DNA of 64,000 nt from a virus (lineage: Duplodnaviria > Caudoviricetes), in the IMG/VR virus record IMGVR_UViG_3300036783_000080, positions 64,001 through 128,000 of that record, one strand, 5' to 3'. The stretch's first letter is position 1. Every line of letters starts with the position of its first letter. Below, piece by piece: positions 42,565 to 54,137 of the stretch. The position numbers and the translations under genes were made by a program. Under the pieces are notes generated by a model. That model saw only the letters and a program-made list of their open reading frames with translations. It had not been told where the DNA came from and made no database searches.

Positions 42565-43514
42565 CAATATTTATATATTGTATAAGCATTTAACTTACAC
42601 ATTCTATATGTTTCCATATAGTTTAGACTATATCTTCACCGTAAGGTGCTGGGCACTCGTGGATGGATTATCGTTTTGCCTAACTCACCATCTAGTCGTT
42701 GAACCTTCTCCATACTTTAAAGGCTTTCAGGAGCTTGGATGCTGATTGTCCAATCATCTTGTTTTTCAAACATTCACGTTTACCGTTTCCAGTTACGTTG
42801 TAGTACAAGAAGCTCTAAGGAGTTTCCAGCAATTCACCCAGTTTATTTAAAAGGCTGCAAATTATATATTGGCTATTATTGTTCCATCTTCTCCTCTTAT
42901 TATGTGTTCGTTATGATGACAAGGTTTGCAAAGTATCTCAAGGTTGGAAAGCTCGTTGTTGTCTCGGTTTCTATCCTTGTGATGTACGTCTAAAGTATGC
43001 AAATCCCCATCTTTCCCGCAACGATTACATTTATGAGAAAAGTTTTCGAAAGCGAGCTTTCGATATTTAGAAATATTTTGACAAAGGTCACAACGTTTTT
43101 GATTGTTACCTGTTTTTGTAAAATGTTTCCCACAGGTTGGACATTTAATGAATGGCACTCTATATATTTTGTATGACTGGTCTCTTCTGTTATTCACTTT
43201 ATTTCGACACTCACTGCAATACTTCTGGTTGTAAGCTGAAGGGTTGAAGTCTCTTTTACATTCGTTACAAGAGACTACTTTGTCCAATAGTCTCCCCTTT
43301 TGACTTCTCCCTTTTTTCTTTCGTTCTTCTCTACACGTATTGCAGTATTTTTGAGTTCCAATCTTCGCTTTAAATGTCTTTTCACAGTTTTTACAAATTT
43401 TGTCGTATTTCGCCACATCAAAAGTTCTAATCATATTTGTTCTCTTCATCATTATCACCTCATAGTTAATATGAAAGTAATATAGAGAACAAAAGCCAAA
43501 GATTTATTTAGCTT
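42565..43514 (-). mobile_element. group I intron, 950 nt, with HNH ORF in the P1 loop
   Basis: P AATTGCTGGAAA, Q AATCAGCA, R GTTCAACGACTAGA, S AAGATATAGTCT; U.G-ended P1, terminal G; splicing restores KAVNFGLIYG. Confidence 0.92.
42862..43458 (-). CDS. intron-encoded HNH homing endonuclease
   Basis: multiple CxxC ribbons; DVHHKDRNRDNNELSNLEILCKPCHHNEH. Confidence 0.88.
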   Translation of the reverse strand: MIMMKRTNMIRTFDVAKYDKICKNCEKTFKAKIGTQKYCNTCREERKKKGRSQKGRLLDKVVSCNECKRDFNPSAYNQKYCSECRNKVNNRRDQSYKIYRVPFIKCPTCGKHFTKTGNNQKRCDLCQNISKYRKLAFENFSHKCNRCGKDGDLHTLDVHHKDRNRDNNELSNLEILCKPCHHNEHIIRGEDGTIIANI

Positions 43515-45538
43515 ACAGCCTTTGCTTTTGTACGGTCATCGTCTGTAACTTCTTCTATCGGTTTCTTCATAGAGATACTAGCAGCATATATGTGTAAATC
43601 ATGACCATCTCTGTACGCTTGAATTAATCGTTCATCACCAGAGAATATCGCAGCAATACGAAGTTCCAGCTGAGAGTAATCGGCTTGTAGGATGAGTCCT
43701 TCATCTCCATAGCGGCTTACGAACATCTTTTTAATTCCATACTGATATTCGAACGAGTACGGGTTGTTTGACTTCCTTGGGAAGTTCTGAGCATTCGGTG
43801 CTTCTGATGCTAAACGTCCTGTAACCGTACCATGTAACATAAAGGTTGGATGTACCAGTCCATCTTCCCCAATCCAAGTACGAGCTGGTTTGATATATGT
43901 TCCATAAACTTTATCCAATCTTCGCCACTCTGACAGCAAGCTCGCTATTGGATGTTTGTCCTTCAAGTACTCTAGTGTTTCTTTACCTGTAGACAAATCT
44001 GAAGTCTTTGGCTTGAACTTCTTATCTTTTCTCTGAAGCTCTTTCGCTTTGTCTGTCAAGAAAGGTGTTTCCAATCCTAACTTATCAAACAATAACTCTC
44101 TTAATTGAGCGGTTGAACCAAAGTTGAAATTGAAGTTCTTATATTTGTTGTACTTAAGTATCTCTTTGTCACGTTCATCTTTTGGTTTCTTCATCTCTTC
44201 TTGACGAATTTTGAACAGATTATGTTTCTCTCTTTCTATCTGTACAACCTCAGGGAACTCTCGCAGCTTCTCTTCGATTTTAGCCATACGAGCAGGGAAT
44301 GCCTCTTCATACTCTGCAAGTCGCTCAGGATTCAAGCGTATGCCGTTAGATTCAATGTTTCGTAACATATAAGAAGCTTCCAACATAATCTCTTTGAATA
44401 CAAAGTCCCAAGCTTCATTTTCTTCAAGGTGTTTCTTGAACGTCATATAAAGTCGGAACGTACAGTCAACATCGGCAGCGGCGTATTCTCTTAAGATTTC
44501 CCAAGGAATGTTGTCATAGTTATGTTGCATCGCTTCTGGAAGAGTTTTCTTGAACTCATCAAGGTCGTTATCGTAACCGCCCATATCAGTATGTTCCCAA
44601 GCTAAATCTTTAAGCCCGTGTCCACCACGTTCTTCTGAAACTGTAAGATAATGACATAACATTGGGTCGAATGCGAAGTTTGCTACATCAATGTTATATT
44701 TAGCAAGTAGCCACTTCATATCGAACTTACCATTATGTGCCATTTTCTTAATCCGTTTGTTTTCCAGTAGCCGCTTAATTAATCCTTTAACTTTATCAAG
44801 TACCATTCCTGGCCAAGTAAACTCTTGATGTTCAAGCGGAATCGTTACACCACGATGCGTTCCATCTGTTAGAGAGATACAGACAATTTTCTGATTCTTC
44901 AGAAATGGGTTTAAGCTCGTGGTCTCTAAGTCAAAACAGTTCCATTCGGCTTGTTCAAGTCTCTCAATCTCTTTTTCCACGTCTTCGTACGTTTCCAAAT
45001 AGTTATAATTGACTGACTTTCTTGTTAAAACATCTCGTCCTTTTTCAGCCAACTCTTTTAAGTTCTGAAGGTCTTTCGCAAAGTTCTTTGAGTGTTTCGG
45101 CTGAGTGAATAAGTTTTCTGGGTGAATGATTGGGAAAATGATATAATCATCTGTCTCAACCGCTTTCCCTCTGTACTTTGTAATCCCTGTCATACCATAA
45201 ATCTTTTTCAAAGATACATTCCCCAAAGGTACGATGATATCAGGCTTGATGACTTTTAGTTCTGCTTCAAATATTGGACCACATTCCTCAATTTCTTCTT
45301 TTACAGGAGGTCTGTCATCATCCAAAGCATACTTCACATATCCTGTGAAGTAACATTCCTCTTTGGGGTCAATTCCTAACTGTTTAAGAGCTGCCTTAAT
45401 GAGCTTCCCAGCTCTACCTGTCATATACTTCCCTTTGGCATATTCCTCTTCAGTAGGAGCATCAGCAACAAACATTATCCTAGCAGATTTCTTCCCTGTA
45501 CCAAATAACGGTTCATCTTTTAGTTCATCAATGGACAT
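43515..45538 (-). CDS. polA: family A DNA polymerase, exon 1 (UDG-like N-domain, 3'-5' exonuclease, polymerase)
   Basis: SPO1-type UDG-like N-terminus, FDLET, AHNGKFD, YAAAD, TGRL, ADYSQLELR. Confidence 0.93.
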
Positions 45539-46514: not shown

Positions 46515-47024
46515 TTATAGCTGAATCATTCTCTTTGCAAAAGTCTTTTGAAGAACTTTTTGTATATCTTTCCAATCAACTGTGGACATGTACAGGTTTC
46601 TGTCGTCAATATAAATGTCCGCTCCAACTTTTCGTGCCACCTTTGGGTGGTACTTTTTCTTGACTTCAGGTAACTGGTCATTAACTGCTGCGAATAAATC
46701 TAACATATTGTGTTGTTTCAGAAACTTCATCGCTTCATAAAGGCTCTCCGCTGTACGACAAGTCCATAAAACCAACACAACATCCTTTCTATTCGCTAAC
46801 CAAGTTAACACCTCTTTACAGTGAGGACGAAGAGTCATCTGGTGACTCATCGCCTTCTCCTCTGTAATTGTTCCGTCAAAATCAACCGCTATAACAAATT
46901 TATCTGGTAAAAATTCCAACCGCTCCACTCTCCTTTTGTTTTTACACTCGCTTCCCTTCAATATAACGGATTTTATCAGCAGAATAATGAACATATAGCT
47001 CTTTAAACGTTGAAGAATCTGCAT
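46515..47024 (-). CDS. HAD-superfamily phosphatase
   Basis: IAVDFDGTI, LWTCR, RKVGADIYIDDRN; true start probably near 46919. Confidence 0.8.
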   Translation of the reverse strand: MQILQRLKSYMFIILLIKSVILKGSECKNKRRVERLEFLPDKFVIAVDFDGTITEEKAMSHQMTLRPHCKEVLTWLANRKDVVLVLWTCRTAESLYEAMKFLKQHNMLDLFAAVNDQLPEVKKKYHPKVARKVGADIYIDDRNLYMSTVDWKDIQKVLQKTFAKRMIQL

Positions 47025-48105
47025 AGAACTTATGAAGGAAGAACAAGCAAGATAACTTCCACTGACAATCTTTCATTTCTGATAACACTTGAATCATTAA
47101 GCCAAACTGTTTTAACTTATGAGCACGATACGCAATCATAGAGAAAACATTTGTACGGAAATACTCGTCAGGAATTGCTGTTGCAAAAGCCATAATCTGT
47201 TCTTGTACTTCAATTTGCTCGAAAGCAGCATCATTATGAAGTGTTTCAACAAATCCTTGATTAAATAGTACATCCAAGAAAGCAGTTGTTTCTTGTAATG
47301 TGGATTTAATTCTTGGCTCGTTTTCAAACGTGAAATGTTTTACTTCTGGAGCTTCAAGTTCATCCCCTGTTAACCCGTATGCCTTTTTGATTTTGTCTGA
47401 CTCTTTATATCCATAATCCTTTAAATAGATATGTAATGAGTCAGTAACTTGGTTATATGTTCCCACTTCAATTCCTAACCAAGAAGCAACCATTTCTTGA
47501 AGCGTAGCAAACTGACATAAGTTCGCTCCAAATGTTCCGTAATGTAAGTCATTACTTCTGTTATAGACTGTTAACTGAAGTTTGTTTTTACGGATTTTAA
47601 AACAAAGAGTCATATTACAAGGGAAGTCTTTACCCTCATAACTTGAGTTGTCAAACATCGGATTCCAAATTTGAGCAACCGCTTGTCGTGTATCCCAGTC
47701 TTTAAGTAGTTTCTCATACACATCTACCAGTTGGTCAATAGGATTGATAATTTGGCCAGTCAAGTCGTTCTTATTCCAAAAGCGTAGTCGTTCCCCATAA
47801 GGAGCGTTAAAGTACACGCCATCATCAGAGAACTCGCCCATATTCTGGTTGTACTTAAGTAAGAACTCAACGTCAGAACGTCCCGCAGAAATCCAAAGAG
47901 CTTCTGCTTGTTGGAAGAATGGGTTGATACGTCTATCCTCCAAGAAAGTAACACGGTTCAGAGGGTTTGTGAACTCAACAATTACGGGACGTAATTCTTT
48001 GATGTCTTTTCCTCTTGGAGCAACAATGTCTCCTTCGTTTTCTAATGCAACGAACGCATCCATATAAAGCTGTGATGAATTGTCATTTGTAAAGATTTTA
48101 CCCAT
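46942..48105 (-). CDS. dUMP hydroxymethylase (thymidylate synthase family)
   Basis: DTRQAV, DFPC, RSND, G..AN (Asn = dUMP specificity), SLHIY; sits in an hmU-type cluster. Confidence 0.85.
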   Translation of the reverse strand: MGKIFTNDNSSQLYMDAFVALENEGDIVAPRGKDIKELRPVIVEFTNPLNRVTFLEDRRINPFFQQAEALWISAGRSDVEFLLKYNQNMGEFSDDGVYFNAPYGERLRFWNKNDLTGQIINPIDQLVDVYEKLLKDWDTRQAVAQIWNPMFDNSSYEGKDFPCNMTLCFKIRKNKLQLTVYNRSNDLHYGTFGANLCQFATLQEMVASWLGIEVGTYNQVTDSLHIYLKDYGYKESDKIKKAYGLTGDELEAPEVKHFTFENEPRIKSTLQETTAFLDVLFNQGFVETLHNDAAFEQIEVQEQIMAFATAIPDEYFRTNVFSMIAYRAHKLKQFGLMIQVLSEMKDCQWKLSCLFFLHKFYADSSTFKELYVHYSADKIRYIEGKRV

Positions 48106-48630: not shown

Positions 48631-49341
48631 TTACATAAATTCTTCACCAAATCCCCCATTCTTACGCTTCTGCTGGATATTCTCAATAATTCTTACAGTT
48701 GTGTTAAAACGTTCAGCAATGACCACCTGAGTGAGCTTTCCTTCCATTAGTAATAAAACAACTTCATAGCGTTCTTTGTAACTTAATGTTTTGTTTCCTT
48801 TCGGAACAAATGGAATATATTTCTCATCCATGTCTGGGTCAATATGACTCCAAGTTCTTCCATTCTTTATACTTCTGATAGTTCCTTCATCATGACCAAG
48901 TTCCCTCGCCACATCTGCTGCTGTTTTATCTGGTTGTGAATGGAAAATTCTTTTTATGTGAAGAGCTTGCTCAACAGTTAATGTGGGAGCGTTTACTGTC
49001 TTATGTCTCTTTCTTCTTTTCATATCATCCATATTATCTTGGTGCGTTCCCAGTTCTAAATGTTCTGGATTGATACAAAGACTGTTATCACACTTATGTC
49101 TGACAACCACACCATTTGGTATTGCTTCCCCGTGAGTAATAAACCACACATAGTGCGTGACTGTTAGTCCCTTTCCTTTGTTTCCTCTGGCTTGTGGATA
49201 ATTACTTCTGCAAACTCTGGGATAACCACTCACCGATATCTTATGACTCACGCACTCCCAACAATCTTTATTCTTAATATATTCTATCGGTTTACATATT
49301 TTCTTAACATCGTTCGGCTCTTGTAATGTATATGTTTTCAT
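48631..49341 (-). CDS. free-standing HNH homing endonuclease with C-terminal HTHs
   Basis: CWE, VVRHKCDNSLCINPEHLELGTHQDNMDD. Confidence 0.88.
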   Translation of the reverse strand: MKTYTLQEPNDVKKICKPIEYIKNKDCWECVSHKISVSGYPRVCRSNYPQARGNKGKGLTVTHYVWFITHGEAIPNGVVVRHKCDNSLCINPEHLELGTHQDNMDDMKRRKRHKTVNAPTLTVEQALHIKRIFHSQPDKTAADVARELGHDEGTIRSIKNGRTWSHIDPDMDEKYIPFVPKGNKTLSYKERYEVVLLLMEGKLTQVVIAERFNTTVRIIENIQQKRKNGGFGEEFM

Positions 49342-49381: not shown

Positions 49382-50473
49382 TTATACTCTTGGTTTCAAG
49401 TTGTCAACATCTGGAGTTCTTAGTTTCATCTTTTTCTTTGGACGTTTTCCTTTTGCAAAGTCATATCCTCTTTCTGTACAGTAAGAGTTGAAATACTTCT
49501 GACTTTCGCAGAACCATCCTTCAAAACAACGTAAATCCAGTTCAGCATCTTCGTTTTGATATTTGTATTCAAGTCCTAACTTCTCAAACATAGCGTTGGC
49601 AACACTTGCTGTAAAGAATACAAGTTCAGTATAAGACATATTACCTTTGTTCTCAAACACATAGTCAACACCCTTTTTGCAACCTGGCCCGCAATTCGTC
49701 CAATAATCCGCTGTCCAGTTAACAAAAGGAATATCAGTCATTTCTTCAACCATAGCTAAATCCAAGCACACTTCATAAGAGTTAAACATTCCAACAGCAG
49801 GAACTCGTGTCAGATAGTTGACTACTGATTCCATGTTATTCTTTTTATTGAATACAAAGTCAGCAATCTCATCTAAGTTGTCAATTACATATTGTAACAG
49901 ACAAATAGCATTCTCTGTTTTGTCGCCGCTCTTTTCTTTATCTGGATTGGCTGATTTTAAATCGTTTACAAAGTAAGCGTCAGTGAAGATTGTTTTTCCT
50001 TGACGTTTACGTTCTCTCAGGTTGGCTTTTGCTCGTTCCCAATCAGATGAGAATGTTTCTGGGTGAATGTATCCGATTATATCCCATGTTTCAGGTCGTA
50101 CAAACAAGCGATAGATGAAAGTGTTTAACAGAAGATACTTTCTTGACTCATCTGTATCCTTTAAGTTTGGAAGAACGTTATCAATGTAATGTAACGTTAC
50201 ACGGTCAAGCTTTCTGTCAACATTAGTGAAATGATATGTTCCCATGATTGGGTCTGTTGTCCAAGGCTTTGGCTCCTGCTCCATAACACGTTTGTACCAG
50301 ATATTTTGACGTTCAACCATATTTCTGAAGTACATTTCAAAGAAAGTTACTCCTGTTTCTGGGTCAACACGCAACTTTACATCATCATTAGGTGTATTAA
50401 TGTATTGTTCTTCCCAGTAAGGTTTATTTTCACGATTTAACGAACGCAAGAAAGCTCCATCAGTTTGTTTCAT
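49382..50473 (-). CDS. 5-hydroxymethyluracil DNA kinase (aGPT-PPlase clade 1)
   Basis: ERQNIW.KR, PWTTDPIM..YHFTNVDR.LDR, G.F.SYEV..DL, GPG.KKG, E...CE..KY. Confidence 0.85.
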   Translation of the reverse strand: MKQTDGAFLRSLNRENKPYWEEQYINTPNDDVKLRVDPETGVTFFEMYFRNMVERQNIWYKRVMEQEPKPWTTDPIMGTYHFTNVDRKLDRVTLHYIDNVLPNLKDTDESRKYLLLNTFIYRLFVRPETWDIIGYIHPETFSSDWERAKANLRERKRQGKTIFTDAYFVNDLKSANPDKEKSGDKTENAICLLQYVIDNLDEIADFVFNKKNNMESVVNYLTRVPAVGMFNSYEVCLDLAMVEEMTDIPFVNWTADYWTNCGPGCKKGVDYVFENKGNMSYTELVFFTASVANAMFEKLGLEYKYQNEDAELDLRCFEGWFCESQKYFNSYCTERGYDFAKGKRPKKKMKLRTPDVDNLKPRV

Positions 50474-50485
50474 TTCAATTCCTCC

Positions 50486-50755
50486 TTATAATTTGTTTAC
50501 ATAGTATGTCTTTACAATATGACAAATAGTTACTTCTTCTGAGTACATACCGCCAGTCTCAATAGACTCGGCTTTGTAAGTGGTTCCAAGGTCTACAATT
50601 TCATATCGAACGTTGTCAATTGTTATTCTTTCCCCAACCATATGTCTCATATCCGTTAGCGATTTAGATGTAAACGACATCACATCTTTATCTTCGCACA
50701 TGAATATAATAGTATGTTTTACATTCTCAATTGGTTGTATCTTCAATTCTGTCAC
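50486..50755 (-). CDS. hypothetical protein
   Basis: 89-aa ORF within modification cluster. Confidence 0.6.
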   Translation of the reverse strand: MTELKIQPIENVKHTIIFMCEDKDVMSFTSKSLTDMRHMVGERITIDNVRYEIVDLGTTYKAESIETGGMYSEEVTICHIVKTYYVNKL

Positions 50756-50756
50756 C

Positions 50757-51461
50757 TCATCTCGAAAATTCTTTTACATAGTTTAAGAATTGTTTTAAAG
50801 TGTCCTGCTTCTTGATAGAACTATTATCAACGACTATACTGTTTAATCCTTCATTTGCGAACTTCTCAGCGTTACGTTGTACAGTTCTCCACTTTCCTTC
50901 AATCTGTTCAACTTTGATTTTATGGAAAGTATCAGGAGAACGTCCTTTAATACGTTCTAAACAAACTTCAAAAGGTGGTAAAAGGTTGTATATGAGAATG
51001 TCTCTATGTGGGCTTTGTCTCTCTTCCAGCTCTTTAAATAGATTTAAGTATGTTGAGTAAATCGTTGAAGAAATTACACCCTCCATAAGTATGCTGAAAG
51101 GAGTCTCCCATAATGATTCAAGCGTTTGTAGTGTCTCCTCATTCCCTTTAAATCCATCCAAGCCGCCTGTCTTCGTTCTGTAACGTCCCATTGCTACAAA
51201 TCCGAATGAAGGGAAAACAGTTGCTCTATCTTTTCCATCAATCGTGAATATAAATGCTCCTCTGTCTTCTGCTAACATAGATAGTGGAACTGTAGATTTT
51301 CCTGAACCATTACATCCTCTAATATTAACAAGCATTAGTCCTTTGCGGTACTTTATTCTGCCGCCGCAGTTTTGTTTCAATGTTTCTATGAACTCTGATA
51401 CTTCAATTCGTTTTAGTTTGATAGAACTTCGTTCCATTTTATCACCTCTAGTATCAATCAT
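50757..51461 (-). CDS. P-loop nucleotide kinase of thymine-hypermodification clusters
   Basis: NIRGCNGSGKST, G.Y...TGGLD, LMEG, CLERIKGR. Confidence 0.75.
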   Translation of the reverse strand: MIDTRGDKMERSSIKLKRIEVSEFIETLKQNCGGRIKYRKGLMLVNIRGCNGSGKSTVPLSMLAEDRGAFIFTIDGKDRATVFPSFGFVAMGRYRTKTGGLDGFKGNEETLQTLESLWETPFSILMEGVISSTIYSTYLNLFKELEERQSPHRDILIYNLLPPFEVCLERIKGRSPDTFHKIKVEQIEGKWRTVQRNAEKFANEGLNSIVVDNSSIKKQDTLKQFLNYVKEFSR

Positions 51462-51482: not shown

Positions 51483-51520
51483 GTACATAATAAAACGTTG
51501 GAGGTGAAAAGTTTTCTCCT
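51483..51520 (-). promoter_or_regulatory. phage-sigma (middle-type) promoter overlapping a 14-bp inverted repeat
   Basis: AGGAGA-19-TTTTATTAT. Confidence 0.7.
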
Positions 51521-54137
51521 ATTCTTCAGTAGGTTGAAGTCCACTATAATGAGCCTTGTCTAACACGTTGAGCTTTGCTTTACTACCTACAAGGAAGCCT
51601 TCAATGGTTTGTAAGAATGCTTGTTTGTAGTCTGGTTTAACAACCCACATATCGTCAACTTTTTCATAATACGTCATAACCTTCTCAAATAGCTCTTCAT
51701 CTTTGAGTTGGTCTTCAAGCTCTGAAATCTCTTCTGGAGTGAATGACGCAAAGCTGACTTCAATCATTGGAGTCCAATTCTTCAGTTTGTCTACAACTGA
51801 AACGACATCCTGTCTTGATACAATCCCAGGAATAATAGGTGAGATTGCTAGAATTGTATAAACGCCAGCATTGAAGCACTTAATAAAGCTCTCAATGATT
51901 TGGTCTGGTGTATGAGCCTTCTTCGTTGGATAGACTGACTTCCATTTGTTGTTATCCATAGTGTTCAGATGAACTCTGACTTCACTCTGTGGATGTTGAG
52001 CTAATGCTTCCACAGCCCAATCGGGGACAACTCTTCTTGTTTCAACAGAAATTGGAATGTCATGTTTTACGCAAAACTCAAAGATTGGTTGAGTTGCTTG
52101 ATGACGTTCCTCACGATAATGGAAAGGTTCAATTGGGAAGTAACACTCATCGTAACGTTGTCCAGCATCAAGATTCTGCTTCAGAAGTTCGCCATAATGT
52201 TTGTTCACACGTTTACTTCCATACGGTGCTGCAACAAAGATTCCTGAGCTTCTTTCCGTTTTAATTGGTTGTCGCACTTCCTCTTCCTCCTGTTCAGGTT
52301 CTTCCTGCTTCTGTGGTTCTGGTTGTTTCTCTTCTGGCTCTTCAAATTCTTCCTCTACTCTTTTGGCTTCATCTATTTCAGCCATAAGCTCAGCATACGT
52401 TTTTCCCTGCGGAGGTTTCACAGTTATTGCTTCTTTATCTTCTTTTTCAGGTTTGGGTTTATGAACAATGTTATCTAATATCTCGTTAACATCATCATCT
52501 CCATCCTCTTCTTCATCGTCGTCATCATCGCCATTCCCAGCCATCTGCTCCATTAAACTTGCGATAAAGTTGTCTGGCTCTTCTGACTGTTCTGCTTTCT
52601 TCTCTGGCTGTTTCTTCTCTTCTTTGACTTCTTCTTCAGGAGCTTCTTCAACCACGTCCTCCTCTTCAACGTCACAAGGCTCTGGTTGAGGCTCTGGCTT
52701 TGGTTCTTCCTTAACCTCTCCTTTTGGCATATTTACAGGAGCTGACTTTGGTGGGAGAACTAAGTCATTGTATTCAGAAATCAATAGGATTTCTTTGTCA
52801 AGTTTCCCTAAAATGCTTTCAAACTCAGATTTATTCGCTCTTTGAACTCCATTTAATGAAGCTACAAGAACAAGTTGTTGAAGTTCTTCTGGAAGAATAT
52901 CCAAGTATTCTCTGTAGTCCATGTCAGTCGTTCCAGAACGTAGGATATAATTGACAACCCATTCTACACATTGCACACGGAAGATTCCATCAATGTCAAG
53001 AATCGCTTGTTTAATAGTATAGTTATCCACATACTCCAATGCACGTTTCGTAGGTCTAGAAACAATACCTTTCTCAAGCATCGTTCCAAGGACTCTGTGA
53101 GCAATTGTCATATCTGCTACTTTCATAGCTTTTACCCATTCTTTGTAGTATTGAGATTGTAACATCTCTATCTTCTTGTCACCTTGTTCAAAATCACCAT
53201 AACGGAAGTCTTGTTCAGCAAGCTCCTTCAGTAACCACTCACGCTCAAAGTCTTCCTTCGTTTTGAAGACTGGGAACTCTCTTTCTTCGTAATAATGTTT
53301 AATCCATTTGTGGTTCTCCCAATATGCATAACGGGCTGCCCATCTCTCTTTATCCCGTCCAAAGTTCTTCTGCCACAGACGGTTGATTGTGAAAGTCATT
53401 AAGCCGCTACCCTTTTTCATGTGTCCGCCAATCCATTTAGAAGGTTCAGCAAATCGGAATAAATCATCATAGATATGTCCATCCCATACTAGTGAACGAG
53501 AATAAACATTGTTTGTGATACCTTTGGATGAGTAATTGAAATGCCAAGTTAATGGGCAAGGAATCCGTTGATGTTGAGAATCGCTCCAACGTTTCATTTC
53601 CATAAGTTCTTTCTGGATGTATCTGCGTCTTGTATATTCTAACAAGTCACGCTCATAATGCCAGAATGTAACAATCCCTTTGTCATTCCCTTTATCTTGT
53701 AGCAGAAGGTCTTTTACAGCGTGTAACTGACCACGTCCTCCAACACGTTGCATATTCTGATATGAAGTGTTAGGAAAGATTTCATCACGCTCCATCATAA
53801 TATCAAGCTGTGTTCTATCGTGTTCAGGTCGCCCAGTTTCAAGTCGGTAGTCCCAATCAGTCGTTCCGTGCCCTTTTACACGTGACATACGTCTTTGGTC
53901 ATATCGAACATCTAAGCCACAACCGATACCCAGTTCACCTTCTACAACATCAGAGTTAACACGAAGATACCAAAATAATGGGTCTGTATTGTGAGGCATA
54001 AACGTAACATAGTTGTCTTGCGTGTTATTTACTTGAAGGAAAACATTTCGCATATCGTAATTATTGTCAATCATTGCCTTCAAGGTTTTCATATAAGCAT
54101 CCCAACAGTTTTCTGCTTCAATAACGTTAAAAGCCAC
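51519..54137 (-). CDS. divergent thymidylate-synthase-like domain, acidic linker and degenerate radical-SAM (SplB-like) domain fusion
   Basis: aligns by eye with 46942-48105 (IPC...VYSRS); C-terminal EPF..E...T, ISVETR, AGV...AISPIIPGI without CxxxCxxC. Confidence 0.65.
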   Translation of the reverse strand: MAFNVIEAENCWDAYMKTLKAMIDNNYDMRNVFLQVNNTQDNYVTFMPHNTDPLFWYLRVNSDVVEGELGIGCGLDVRYDQRRMSRVKGHGTTDWDYRLETGRPEHDRTQLDIMMERDEIFPNTSYQNMQRVGGRGQLHAVKDLLLQDKGNDKGIVTFWHYERDLLEYTRRRYIQKELMEMKRWSDSQHQRIPCPLTWHFNYSSKGITNNVYSRSLVWDGHIYDDLFRFAEPSKWIGGHMKKGSGLMTFTINRLWQKNFGRDKERWAARYAYWENHKWIKHYYEEREFPVFKTKEDFEREWLLKELAEQDFRYGDFEQGDKKIEMLQSQYYKEWVKAMKVADMTIAHRVLGTMLEKGIVSRPTKRALEYVDNYTIKQAILDIDGIFRVQCVEWVVNYILRSGTTDMDYREYLDILPEELQQLVLVASLNGVQRANKSEFESILGKLDKEILLISEYNDLVLPPKSAPVNMPKGEVKEEPKPEPQPEPCDVEEEDVVEEAPEEEVKEEKKQPEKKAEQSEEPDNFIASLMEQMAGNGDDDDDEEEDGDDDVNEILDNIVHKPKPEKEDKEAITVKPPQGKTYAELMAEIDEAKRVEEEFEEPEEKQPEPQKQEEPEQEEEEVRQPIKTERSSGIFVAAPYGSKRVNKHYGELLKQNLDAGQRYDECYFPIEPFHYREERHQATQPIFEFCVKHDIPISVETRRVVPDWAVEALAQHPQSEVRVHLNTMDNNKWKSVYPTKKAHTPDQIIESFIKCFNAGVYTILAISPIIPGIVSRQDVVSVVDKLKNWTPMIEVSFASFTPEEISELEDQLKDEELFEKVMTYYEKVDDMWVVKPDYKQAFLQTIEGFLVGSKAKLNVLDKAHYSGLQPTEE

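Follow-up and report, generated by a model that had tools for sequence, protein, structure and literature searches.

A Thymidylate-Synthase-Fold Protein with a Cluster-Less Radical-SAM Barrel Is a Candidate Transferase for Thymidine Hypermodification in an SP10-Group Phage

Introduction

Pathways of thymidine hypermodification are known from the phages M6, ViI, PaMx11, and phiW-14, and SP10, the founding example, has no enzyme assigned to glutamate attachment and no gene for an amino-acid:DNA transferase (ADDT), the enzyme by which related phages couple amino acids to thymine in DNA. The present analysis concerns the gene at 51519..54137 (minus strand; 872 amino acids (aa), P0001), an ortholog of gp185 (BAK52997) of Bacillus phage SP10, in a window of 64,000 nucleotides taken from the IMG/VR virus record IMGVR_UViG_3300036783_000080 (positions 64,001 to 128,000); all coordinates given without a locus name are those of the window. 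The SP10 protein gp186 phosphorylates 5-hydroxymethyl-2'-deoxyuridine (5-hmdU) in DNA (PMC8989533). In the reaction of ADDT on 5-phosphomethyl-dU (5-PmdU), a cysteine adds at C6, the phosphate is lost, an exocyclic methylene is formed, and an amine or a hydroxyl adds to it (PMC8989533). A chemistry like that of thymidylate synthase (TS) was proposed for SP10 in 1981 by Witmer, as cited in PMC8989533. No aGPT-Pplase2 was found in SP10 by Lee (2018), and gp185 was labelled there as "Radical SAM" (SAM, S-adenosylmethionine) only, with no function assigned (PMC5889632, Table 3). In the papers on gp185 surveyed, a set outside which Iyer et al. 2013 and Witmer 1979/1985 fall, nothing is said of a TS fold, of a missing cluster loop, or of a link to ADDT, and full-text literature searches, again outside Iyer et al. 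2013, returned no paper tying a TS-like domain to hypermodification.

The comparison presented below somewhat favours the view that the gene at 51519..54137 encodes a DNA-level 5-PmdU transferase built on a TS fold, the donor being glutamate if the analogy with SP10 holds. The broader claim, that of a protein acting on 5-PmdU in DNA through cysteine catalysis, is considered quite probable. The transferase reading is based on the retained Cys and Arg, the loss of mononucleotide ligands, the linkage to a kinase gene, the mutual exclusion with ADDT, and a domain swap in a related phage. An earlier note on this DNA, made from the sequence without database searches, had proposed that the retained Cys would act on phosphorylated 5-hydroxymethyluracil (hmU) inside DNA, as the second step of the pathway. 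This idea gains support from the kinase adjacency at 11/11 loci, the ADDT exclusion, the swap in phage LysYB2, and a radical-SAM neighbour at locus L008.

The Thymidylate-Synthase-Fold Domain and Its Active Site

The open reading frame (ORF) of 872 codons exists as the earlier note had described it, and its N-terminal domain (aa 1-293; 53259..54137, minus strand) is a real but very divergent TS fold, as established using hhalign, AlphaFold2 (AF2), Foldseek, and VIA-align. In the hhalign comparison, a profile of 21 N-domains (A7) matched a profile of TS and dUMP hydroxymethylase sequences including E. coli ThyA (A6) with a probability of 97.6% and an E-value of 2.8e-12 over 184 columns. The AF2 model of aa 1-460 had a predicted local distance difference test score (pLDDT) of 86.6 and a predicted template modelling score of 0.88. 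Foldseek retrieved MilA as its best match (E 5.7e-10, probability 1.0), followed by more than 30 TS entries, and VIA-align superimposed the model on MilA (PDB 5jnh) with a Z-score of 27.4 and a root-mean-square deviation of 3.2 over 304 residues, on TS structures with Z-scores of 15-16.5, and on T4 dCMP hydroxymethylase (6l18) with a Z-score of 13.5. Judged by VIA-align Z-scores of 27.4, 17.5, and 16.5, the domain has the alpha/beta fold of TS, and a look-up in the ESM Atlas agrees with this assignment; the TS fold that the earlier note had proposed to look for in this half was thus recovered by both profile and model.

The N-terminus of P0001 had no TS match in Pfam and no match in PHROGs, no TS was found among PDB sequences by phmmer or by a profile hmmsearch with the N-domain, and pairwise BLASTP against the dUMP hydroxymethylase of the same window (46942..48105) was marginal (E 0.015). 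These failed searches reflect divergence, not a missing fold. Three remote relatives matched the Pfam TS model in the catalytic region with 17.5-21.8 bits, under the threshold of 24.3, and a broadened TS-like hidden Markov model run over all fetched loci picked genuine TS ORFs only. The motif pairs that had been aligned by eye between the domain and the dUMP hydroxymethylase are all present, and all but the last of them fall in register in the default profile-profile alignment.

The roles of TS residues were taken from the E. coli and L. casei enzymes and from T4 dCMP hydroxymethylase, and equivalent positions were mapped by hhalign. The predicted nucleophile, Cys194 in the motif HQRIPCP (codon at 53556..53558, minus strand, confirmed by translation), corresponds to Cys146 of E. 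coli TS, Arg214 in the motif YSRS (53496..53498, minus strand) to Arg166, and the following Ser215 to Ser167; the spacing of 20 residues between Cys194 and Arg214 equals that between positions 146 and 166 of the E. coli enzyme. Asp225 (53463..53465, minus strand) occupies the position of TS Asn177, which contacts O4/N3 of the pyrimidine. The mapping therefore reproduces the retained Cys and Arg-Ser pair, the change of RSND to RSLV, and the Asp at the specificity position that had been read by eye. Six residues (Asp63, Gly74, Trp95, Asp164, Cys194, and Arg214) are invariant in 24 sequences with identities down to 19%, so that the lack of conservation of the Cys, named earlier as a reason to abandon the proposal, was not observed. 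Asp225 is kept in at least 90% of the 24 sequences, with P0028 alone having Asn, Ser215 is conserved within the SP10-like clade, and the glutamine-rich helix of TS is kept in the N-domain.

The ligands of dUMP are largely replaced. In P0001, the Arg21 loop is deleted, Arg126/127 are substituted by Asp152-Lys153, and Asn177 by Asp225; in the SP10-like clade as a whole, only one of the four phosphate-binding arginines remains, the 3'-OH ligands are gone, and the TS motif RSxD reads RSLV. The remote clade keeps more ligands, including Arg21-like and Arg126-like residues and the RSxD motif. The His-x-Tyr motif (TS His207/Tyr209) was found on the matching strand in no family member; its loss, described earlier as a change of SLHIY to RLWQK, holds for the family, but the exact correspondence of RLWQK lies in a low-confidence extension of the alignment. 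The net charge calculated per domain singled out no DNA-binding surface.

Kinase Linkage, Exclusion of ADDT, and a Domain Swap

Thirteen close homologues align in three conserved blocks (aa 1-293, 294-455, and 618-872). When 1.84 billion cluster representatives were searched exhaustively by HMMER using the N-domain profile, only 16 proteins were returned, 11 of which are remote relatives of 404-855 aa, and further locus searches added few TS-like loci. A P-loop DNA-base kinase gene was found adjacent to the TS-like gene or one gene off at all informative loci (11/11), which belong to very different phages; this is the co-occurrence that the earlier note had suggested examining. The TS-like gene stands directly upstream of the kinase gene here, in SP10, and at L014, L015, L004, L005, L009, L010, L018, and L016, the last with a kinase of the Ploopntkinase3 type, and one gene lies between the two at L003 and in the contig of P0021. 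Locus L008 was left out of this judgement since its contig is too short.

At L008 (719-3030), the TS-like gene (P0019) is immediately followed by that of P0074, a true radical-SAM enzyme whose barrel belongs to the family seen in the C-terminal part of P0001, with the motif CPMDCSFC and a Pfam score of 34.6 bits against a cut-off of 29.5. By analogy, this pair parallels gp51 (ADDT) and gp53 (radical SAM) of M6; the fusion probably descends from such an arrangement of two genes, and the pair suggests that the modification in that phage goes further, to an isomerised form. Another relative, P0018 (L003:8001-12753), has an N-terminal P-loop-like domain (GAGCSGKS; weak AAA_18 match, E 0.003) preceding the TS-like and helical modules, and an acidic tail; the L003 cluster also holds a DUF2284 metal-binding protein beside the 5-hmdU DNA kinase.

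Searches for ADDT (PF18724) and for A8, an ADDT-fold family below the threshold of that model, found the positive controls M6 and LysYB2. Neither domain was detected in P0001, in the whole 150,650-base genome, or in the complete genome of SP10, which extends to the genome the earlier remark that no aGPT-PPlase2 was recognisable in the window. None of the 12 TS-like loci (0/12) had a match to the ADDT profile or to the A8 domain, and LysYB2 and M6 show the reverse of this genome and SP10, with ADDT/A8 present and the TS-like module absent. Among 80 kinase-anchored IMG/VR loci, ADDT occurred in 23, A8 in 34, and the TS-like module in one (SP10), and no locus combined two of these.

The Lysinibacillus phage vB_LfM_LysYB2 (LysYB2), of the same subfamily, encodes a syntenic protein, M5_0031 (WAB25209), whose gene precedes the series of kinase, small ORF, and HMUDK_hel. 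The C-terminal 250 residues of M5_0031 have 43% identity to the P0001 barrel and likewise lack the cluster loop, and an acidic linker joins this barrel to an ADDT-fold domain. No similarity to the TS-like profile was found in its N-terminal 350 residues, and the two N-domains were therefore treated as non-homologous. The N-domain of M5_0031 has a sub-threshold match to Pfam ADDT (E 3e-5); its model (pLDDT 85.7) is most similar to PaMx11 gp46/PUGT, with a Foldseek probability of 0.99 and a VIA-align Z-score of 15.3, the next being 10.1. Cys250 is invariant in the M5_0031 family (A8), and in PUGT, Cys247 attacks C6 (PMC11472151). The hhalign comparisons of A8 with single sequences of M6 gp51 or HMUDK_hel were uninformative, and the kinship with ADDT rests on structure. 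Two unrelated Cys-bearing modules take the same place before the same barrel, and from this swap the TS-fold module is likely a functional replacement of ADDT.

The A8 family itself (P0031-P0073; e.g., L011:5858-7777) is large and carries the invariant Cys motif K-x-C-S-F-R-N-L-F-K. Some members stand alone (about 355 aa), and others form fusions with either the 5-hmdU DNA kinase (about 530 aa) or the cluster-less barrel. No other partner was seen as often at the 80 kinase-anchored loci (34/80).

The C-Terminal Barrel, Helical Domain, and Linker

The C-terminal part (aa 618-872 and the stop codon; 51519..52286, minus strand) is a barrel of the radical-SAM/SPL (spore photoproduct lyase) type without the iron-sulfur loop. 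It was aligned by hhalign to residues 152-361 of M6 gp53, past the motif CTVGCAFC of that protein (98.1%, E 7e-14, 199 columns), and to phrog_9252 'DNA repair photolyase' (E 1.8e-11), which bears out the SplB-like assignment made earlier; the Pfam Radical_SAM model (PF04055) gave 18.4 bits, under its cut-off of 29.5. No CxxxCxxC was found in P0001, in SP10 gp185, or in any of the 21 fused relatives checked. P0001 has PYGSKR (aa 638-643; 52209..52226, minus strand) at the site at which PY-GY-CxxxCxxC stands in true radical-SAM relatives, and the alignment with P0074 (CPMDCSFC) and M6 gp53 (CTVGCAFC) (A10) placed the deletion of about 20 motif-bearing residues directly past the conserved Pro-Tyr. 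Among the M6-type barrels listed with a motif, 24/24 have C[TAP]VGCxxC.

Given the loop deletion, the barrel is radical-SAM-derived yet lacks canonical cluster binding. Judging by its similarity to gp53, it descends from gp53/SPL-type radical-SAM enzymes acting on DNA bases, and our guess is that it serves as a domain holding DNA or the modified base and not as a radical catalyst. A barrel without radical catalysis would fit an end product in which the N-C bond stays as it is and no isomerisation is required. Two free-standing barrels of 480 aa at classical ADDT loci (L059:871-2310 and L060:6888-8327) had no CxxxCxxC in the ORF as extracted, and the M6-type barrels apart from this pair have CTVGCAFC; the pair could represent a variant motif or a second independent loss.

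The order of TS fold, linker, and barrel given in the earlier note holds, but a conserved all-helical domain preceding the linker had not been noted (aa 294-455; 52773..53258, minus strand), which stands out as a conserved block (alignment A3) and is helical in the AF2 model. In the superposition on MilA, which spans model residues 6-412, the beginning of this domain coincides with the helical extension at the C-terminus of MilA, and beyond that only generic helical-repeat structures were matched (Z-scores of 4-6.5). A helical-domain profile had no match in PDB sequences, and no similarity was found to the C-terminal extension of dUMP hydroxymethylases. The linker (aa 456-617; 52287..52772, minus strand), delimited by composition and alignment, is rich in Glu, Pro, and Lys and acidic (pI 4.1); such a long acidic linker is present in 2 of the 13 aligned homologues only (P0001 and P0004).

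Proposed Mechanism and Rival Explanations

In the proposed mechanism, the 872-aa protein would act on newly made phage DNA after the neighbouring kinase has phosphorylated hmU in it. The TS-fold domain would bind a flipped-out 5-PmdU, and Cys194 would add to C6, like Cys146 in TS. The phosphate would then leave with formation of an exocyclic methylene at C5, which in TS is the central intermediate. The alpha-amine of a free amino acid, glutamate by analogy with SP10, would add to this methylene, and release of the cysteine would give alpha-glutamylthymine in DNA. The module is likely a non-homologous replacement of the helix-hairpin-helix ADDT (aGPT-Pplase2) of M6, ViI, PaMx11, and phiW-14. 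The wider proposal has about an even chance of being right: it holds that a branch of the TS fold moved from free nucleotides to DNA, that the SP10 enzyme converts phosphorylated hmU in DNA to alpha-glutamylthymine (and perhaps thymine) by the TS cysteine mechanism put forward by Witmer in 1981, and that its origin is separate from that of the helix-hairpin-helix transferases, whose place it takes.

Several points weigh against the transferase reading. Among members of the fold, those specific for cytosine are classically marked by an Asp at the position of Asn177 (Asp179 of T4 dCMP hydroxymethylase), and MilA, which gave the best structural match, acts on CMP. Glutamate is taken by analogy from the chemistry of SP10, and the same chemistry could end in hydride transfer, giving thymine, instead of amine addition. 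The activity predicted for gp185 and its relatives comes from comparison of sequences and models, and the AF2 models were built on alignments of only 24 sequences. With only 16 TS-like clusters, co-occurrence could be counted in few cases, some of them related by descent. The swap argument depends on A8, a clade that is sub-threshold in Pfam and whose activity is assumed.

The main rival is thymine formation by reduction, in which the same Cys-C6 adduct and methylene would form on 5-PmdU in DNA and a hydride would then yield plain thymine; in a variant, the enzyme might do both jobs, with glutamate or hydride partitioned by sequence context. In TS itself, the second half of the native reaction reduces the methylene with tetrahydrofolate, and RSxD, a motif with an Asp that contributes a folate contact in TS, is preserved in the remote clade. 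Moreover, M6 gp51 with borohydride gives thymidine from the same intermediate, and SP10-type phages turn all remaining hmU in DNA into thymine by an enzyme that has not been assigned (PMC8989533). Nevertheless, this explanation is judged unlikely: M6, ViI, and phiW-14 also make thymine from hmU without a TS-like module, and the common thymine-forming activity should therefore lie elsewhere; the gene fills the ADDT slot in the LysYB2 synteny; the SP10-like clade has lost the equivalent of Asp169 as well as the folate contacts of the C-terminus; and SP10-like genomes would be left without any candidate glutamate transferase.

The two alternatives raised in the earlier note, a dead scaffold and a cytosine substrate, have both been weakened. 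As a non-catalytic subunit, the degenerate TS fold and the degenerate barrel would do no more than bind DNA that contains hmU or phospho-hmU, and their role in the kinase reaction would be one of targeting, regulation, or protection, which would agree with two enzyme-derived domains devoid of hallmark cofactor or substrate ligands, with the tight coupling to the kinase gene, and with the N-terminal P-loop-like domain of P0018. The invariance of the Cys, Arg, Asp63, Trp95, and Asp164 across the 24 sequences is, however, a pattern like that of an active site, and the SP10 kinase is sufficient alone in vitro (PMC8989533), which makes such a role improbable. It is very improbable that the phage has in this protein a second enzyme resembling pyrimidine hydroxymethylases, one of the cytosine type with dCMP, CMP, or some other mononucleotide as its substrate. 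To our knowledge, all characterised members of the TS fold do act on mononucleotides, and Asp225 at the specificity position and the structural matches to MilA, the best one, and to T4 dCMP hydroxymethylase point the same way. Against this stand the missing phosphate-binding arginines (three of four) and 3'-OH ligands of the SP10-like clade, the fusion to a domain that has relatives with DNA bases as substrates, the strict linkage to a DNA-base kinase, the exclusion by ADDT, and the fact that thymine replacement alone is reported for SP10 DNA.

Gene Order of the Hypermodification Region

The window originates from a complete virus record of 150,650 bases, and the Bacillus phage was placed in the SP10 group of Herelleviridae. 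Its nearest relative over the gene at 51519..54137 is Bacillus phage Nachito (93.5% nucleotide identity), and the tblastn identities to P0001 are 95.6% for Nachito, 65.4% for SBSphiC, 64.9% for SP-10, and 50.5% for YungSlug. The gene starts with GTG, preceded by an AGGAG ribosome-binding site. SP10 gp185 and P0001 share 65% identity across 81% of the length, in two pieces flanking the variable linker, and the full-length similarity together with conserved synteny and shared neighbours places P0001 in the orthologous group of gp185.

The hypermodification region extends over 45.6-54.1 kb on the minus strand and also holds a family A DNA polymerase gene. Immediately downstream of 51519..54137 lies the 5-hmdU DNA kinase gene (50757..51461, minus strand; P-loop domain, 234 aa; Pfam PF18748, E 1.7e-20), the product of which has 64% identity with residues 6-221 of SP10 gp186. 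The gene at 49382..50473 (minus strand, 363 aa), which the earlier note had mistaken for the kinase, encodes a helical protein of the HMUDK_hel/aGPT-Pplase1 type (Pfam PF18723, E 1.3e-50) with 67% identity to gp186 residues 274-632. The kinase and HMUDK_hel are thus one fused protein in SP10 (gp186) and two genes here. Between them lies an ORF of 89 aa (50486-50755, minus strand) with its own GGAGG ribosome-binding site, for which no homologue was found in the fetched loci or in Pfam; LysYB2 likewise has a small ORF at this place. The canonical dUMP hydroxymethylase of the TS family (46942..48105, minus strand; Pfam PF00303, E 5.4e-20; phrog_5131, E 2.8e-117) is the source of hmU. A free-standing HNH endonuclease with a helix-turn-helix domain (48631-49341, minus strand; Pfam HNH_3, E 1.4e-11) lies between the HMUDK_hel and dUMP hydroxymethylase genes, where SP10 has merely a small ORF on the opposite strand, and looks like a homing endonuclease insertion into the modification cluster.

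Further downstream, an ORF for a haloacid dehalogenase (HAD)-like phosphatase (46515-47024, minus strand; weak Pfam HAD matches, phrog_1238) overlaps, as listed, the 3' end of the dUMP hydroxymethylase gene by 83 bases, and its true start is therefore probably further downstream. The contig L004 has an ORF similar to HAD and polynucleotide kinase phosphatase (PNKP) proteins between the kinase and HMUDK_hel genes, and a phosphatase may therefore be part of the pathway. The gene for a protein combining uracil-DNA glycosylase (UDG), exonuclease, and PolA domains (43508-45538, minus strand) breaks off partway through the polymerase domain (the match covers positions 8-213 of the 381 in Pfam DNA_pol_A), so the gene is split. 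A UDG-like domain joined to PolA was also found in other hmU-type contigs (L005, L010, and the contig of P0028).

Comparison with Known Systems

P0001 and gp185 provide a concrete candidate for the glutamyl-thymine step, one for which the predicted nucleophile can be named (Cys194) and which has a small set of relatives. New here are the kinase adjacency at 11/11 informative loci, the lack of co-occurrence with ADDT, and the ADDT-fold swap in LysYB2, and the abundant ADDT-fold clade A8, missed by current Pfam thresholds, is flagged. If the proposal is true, the same covalent chemistry would have evolved convergently on two unrelated folds, the TS fold would be extended to DNA, with the first member of the ThyA superfamily acting on a polynucleotide, a radical-SAM barrel would have been reused without its cluster, and a second scaffold for the enzymatic installation of amines on DNA would be available.

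Compared with SP10 gp185, P0001 has the same three domains and linker, the same position upstream of the kinase, no CxxxCxxC, and the same motifs HQRIPCP...YSRS; SP10 differs in encoding the kinase and the helical protein downstream as a single fusion (gp186). With the TS-fold hydroxymethylases, including MilA, T4 dCMP hydroxymethylase, and the enzyme at 46942..48105, P0001 shares the fold, the Cys nucleophile, the Arg-Ser pair, and the glutamine-rich helix; it resembles the cytosine enzymes in the Asp at the 177 position and MilA in the first helices of the C-terminal extension. It differs from them in having only about 12% identity, a score under the Pfam threshold, and mostly lost phosphate arginines and 3'-OH ligands, while the invariant Asp63, Trp95, and Asp164, the fusion to the helical domain and barrel, and the tie to a DNA kinase are features of its own. 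The predicted substrate of P0001 is a base in DNA, whereas that of the hydroxymethylases is a nucleotide.

The ADDT proteins (M6 gp51, ViI gp247, and PaMx11 gp46/PUGT, PDB 8z2m) share with P0001 the predicted step and chemistry, the partner 5-HMUDK, and, in LysYB2, the slot before the barrel. Their fold, however, is helix-hairpin-helix and glycosylase-like, unlike the alpha/beta TS fold of P0001, and there is no sequence similarity between the two; P0001 may work like an ADDT but is not a member of that family. M6 gp53, a radical-SAM N-alpha-glycinylthymine isomerase (PMC8989533), is homologous to the barrel over about 200 residues, and both occur in thymidine hypermodification clusters; gp53 is free-standing and has CTVGCAFC, whereas the barrel of P0001 is fused and, with the CxxxCxxC loop deleted, is not expected to perform radical chemistry with [4Fe-4S] and SAM. 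LysYB2 M5_0031 has the same locus, acidic linker, and cluster-less barrel as P0001, and the two differ in the N-terminal module, which has the ADDT fold in M5_0031 and the TS fold in P0001.

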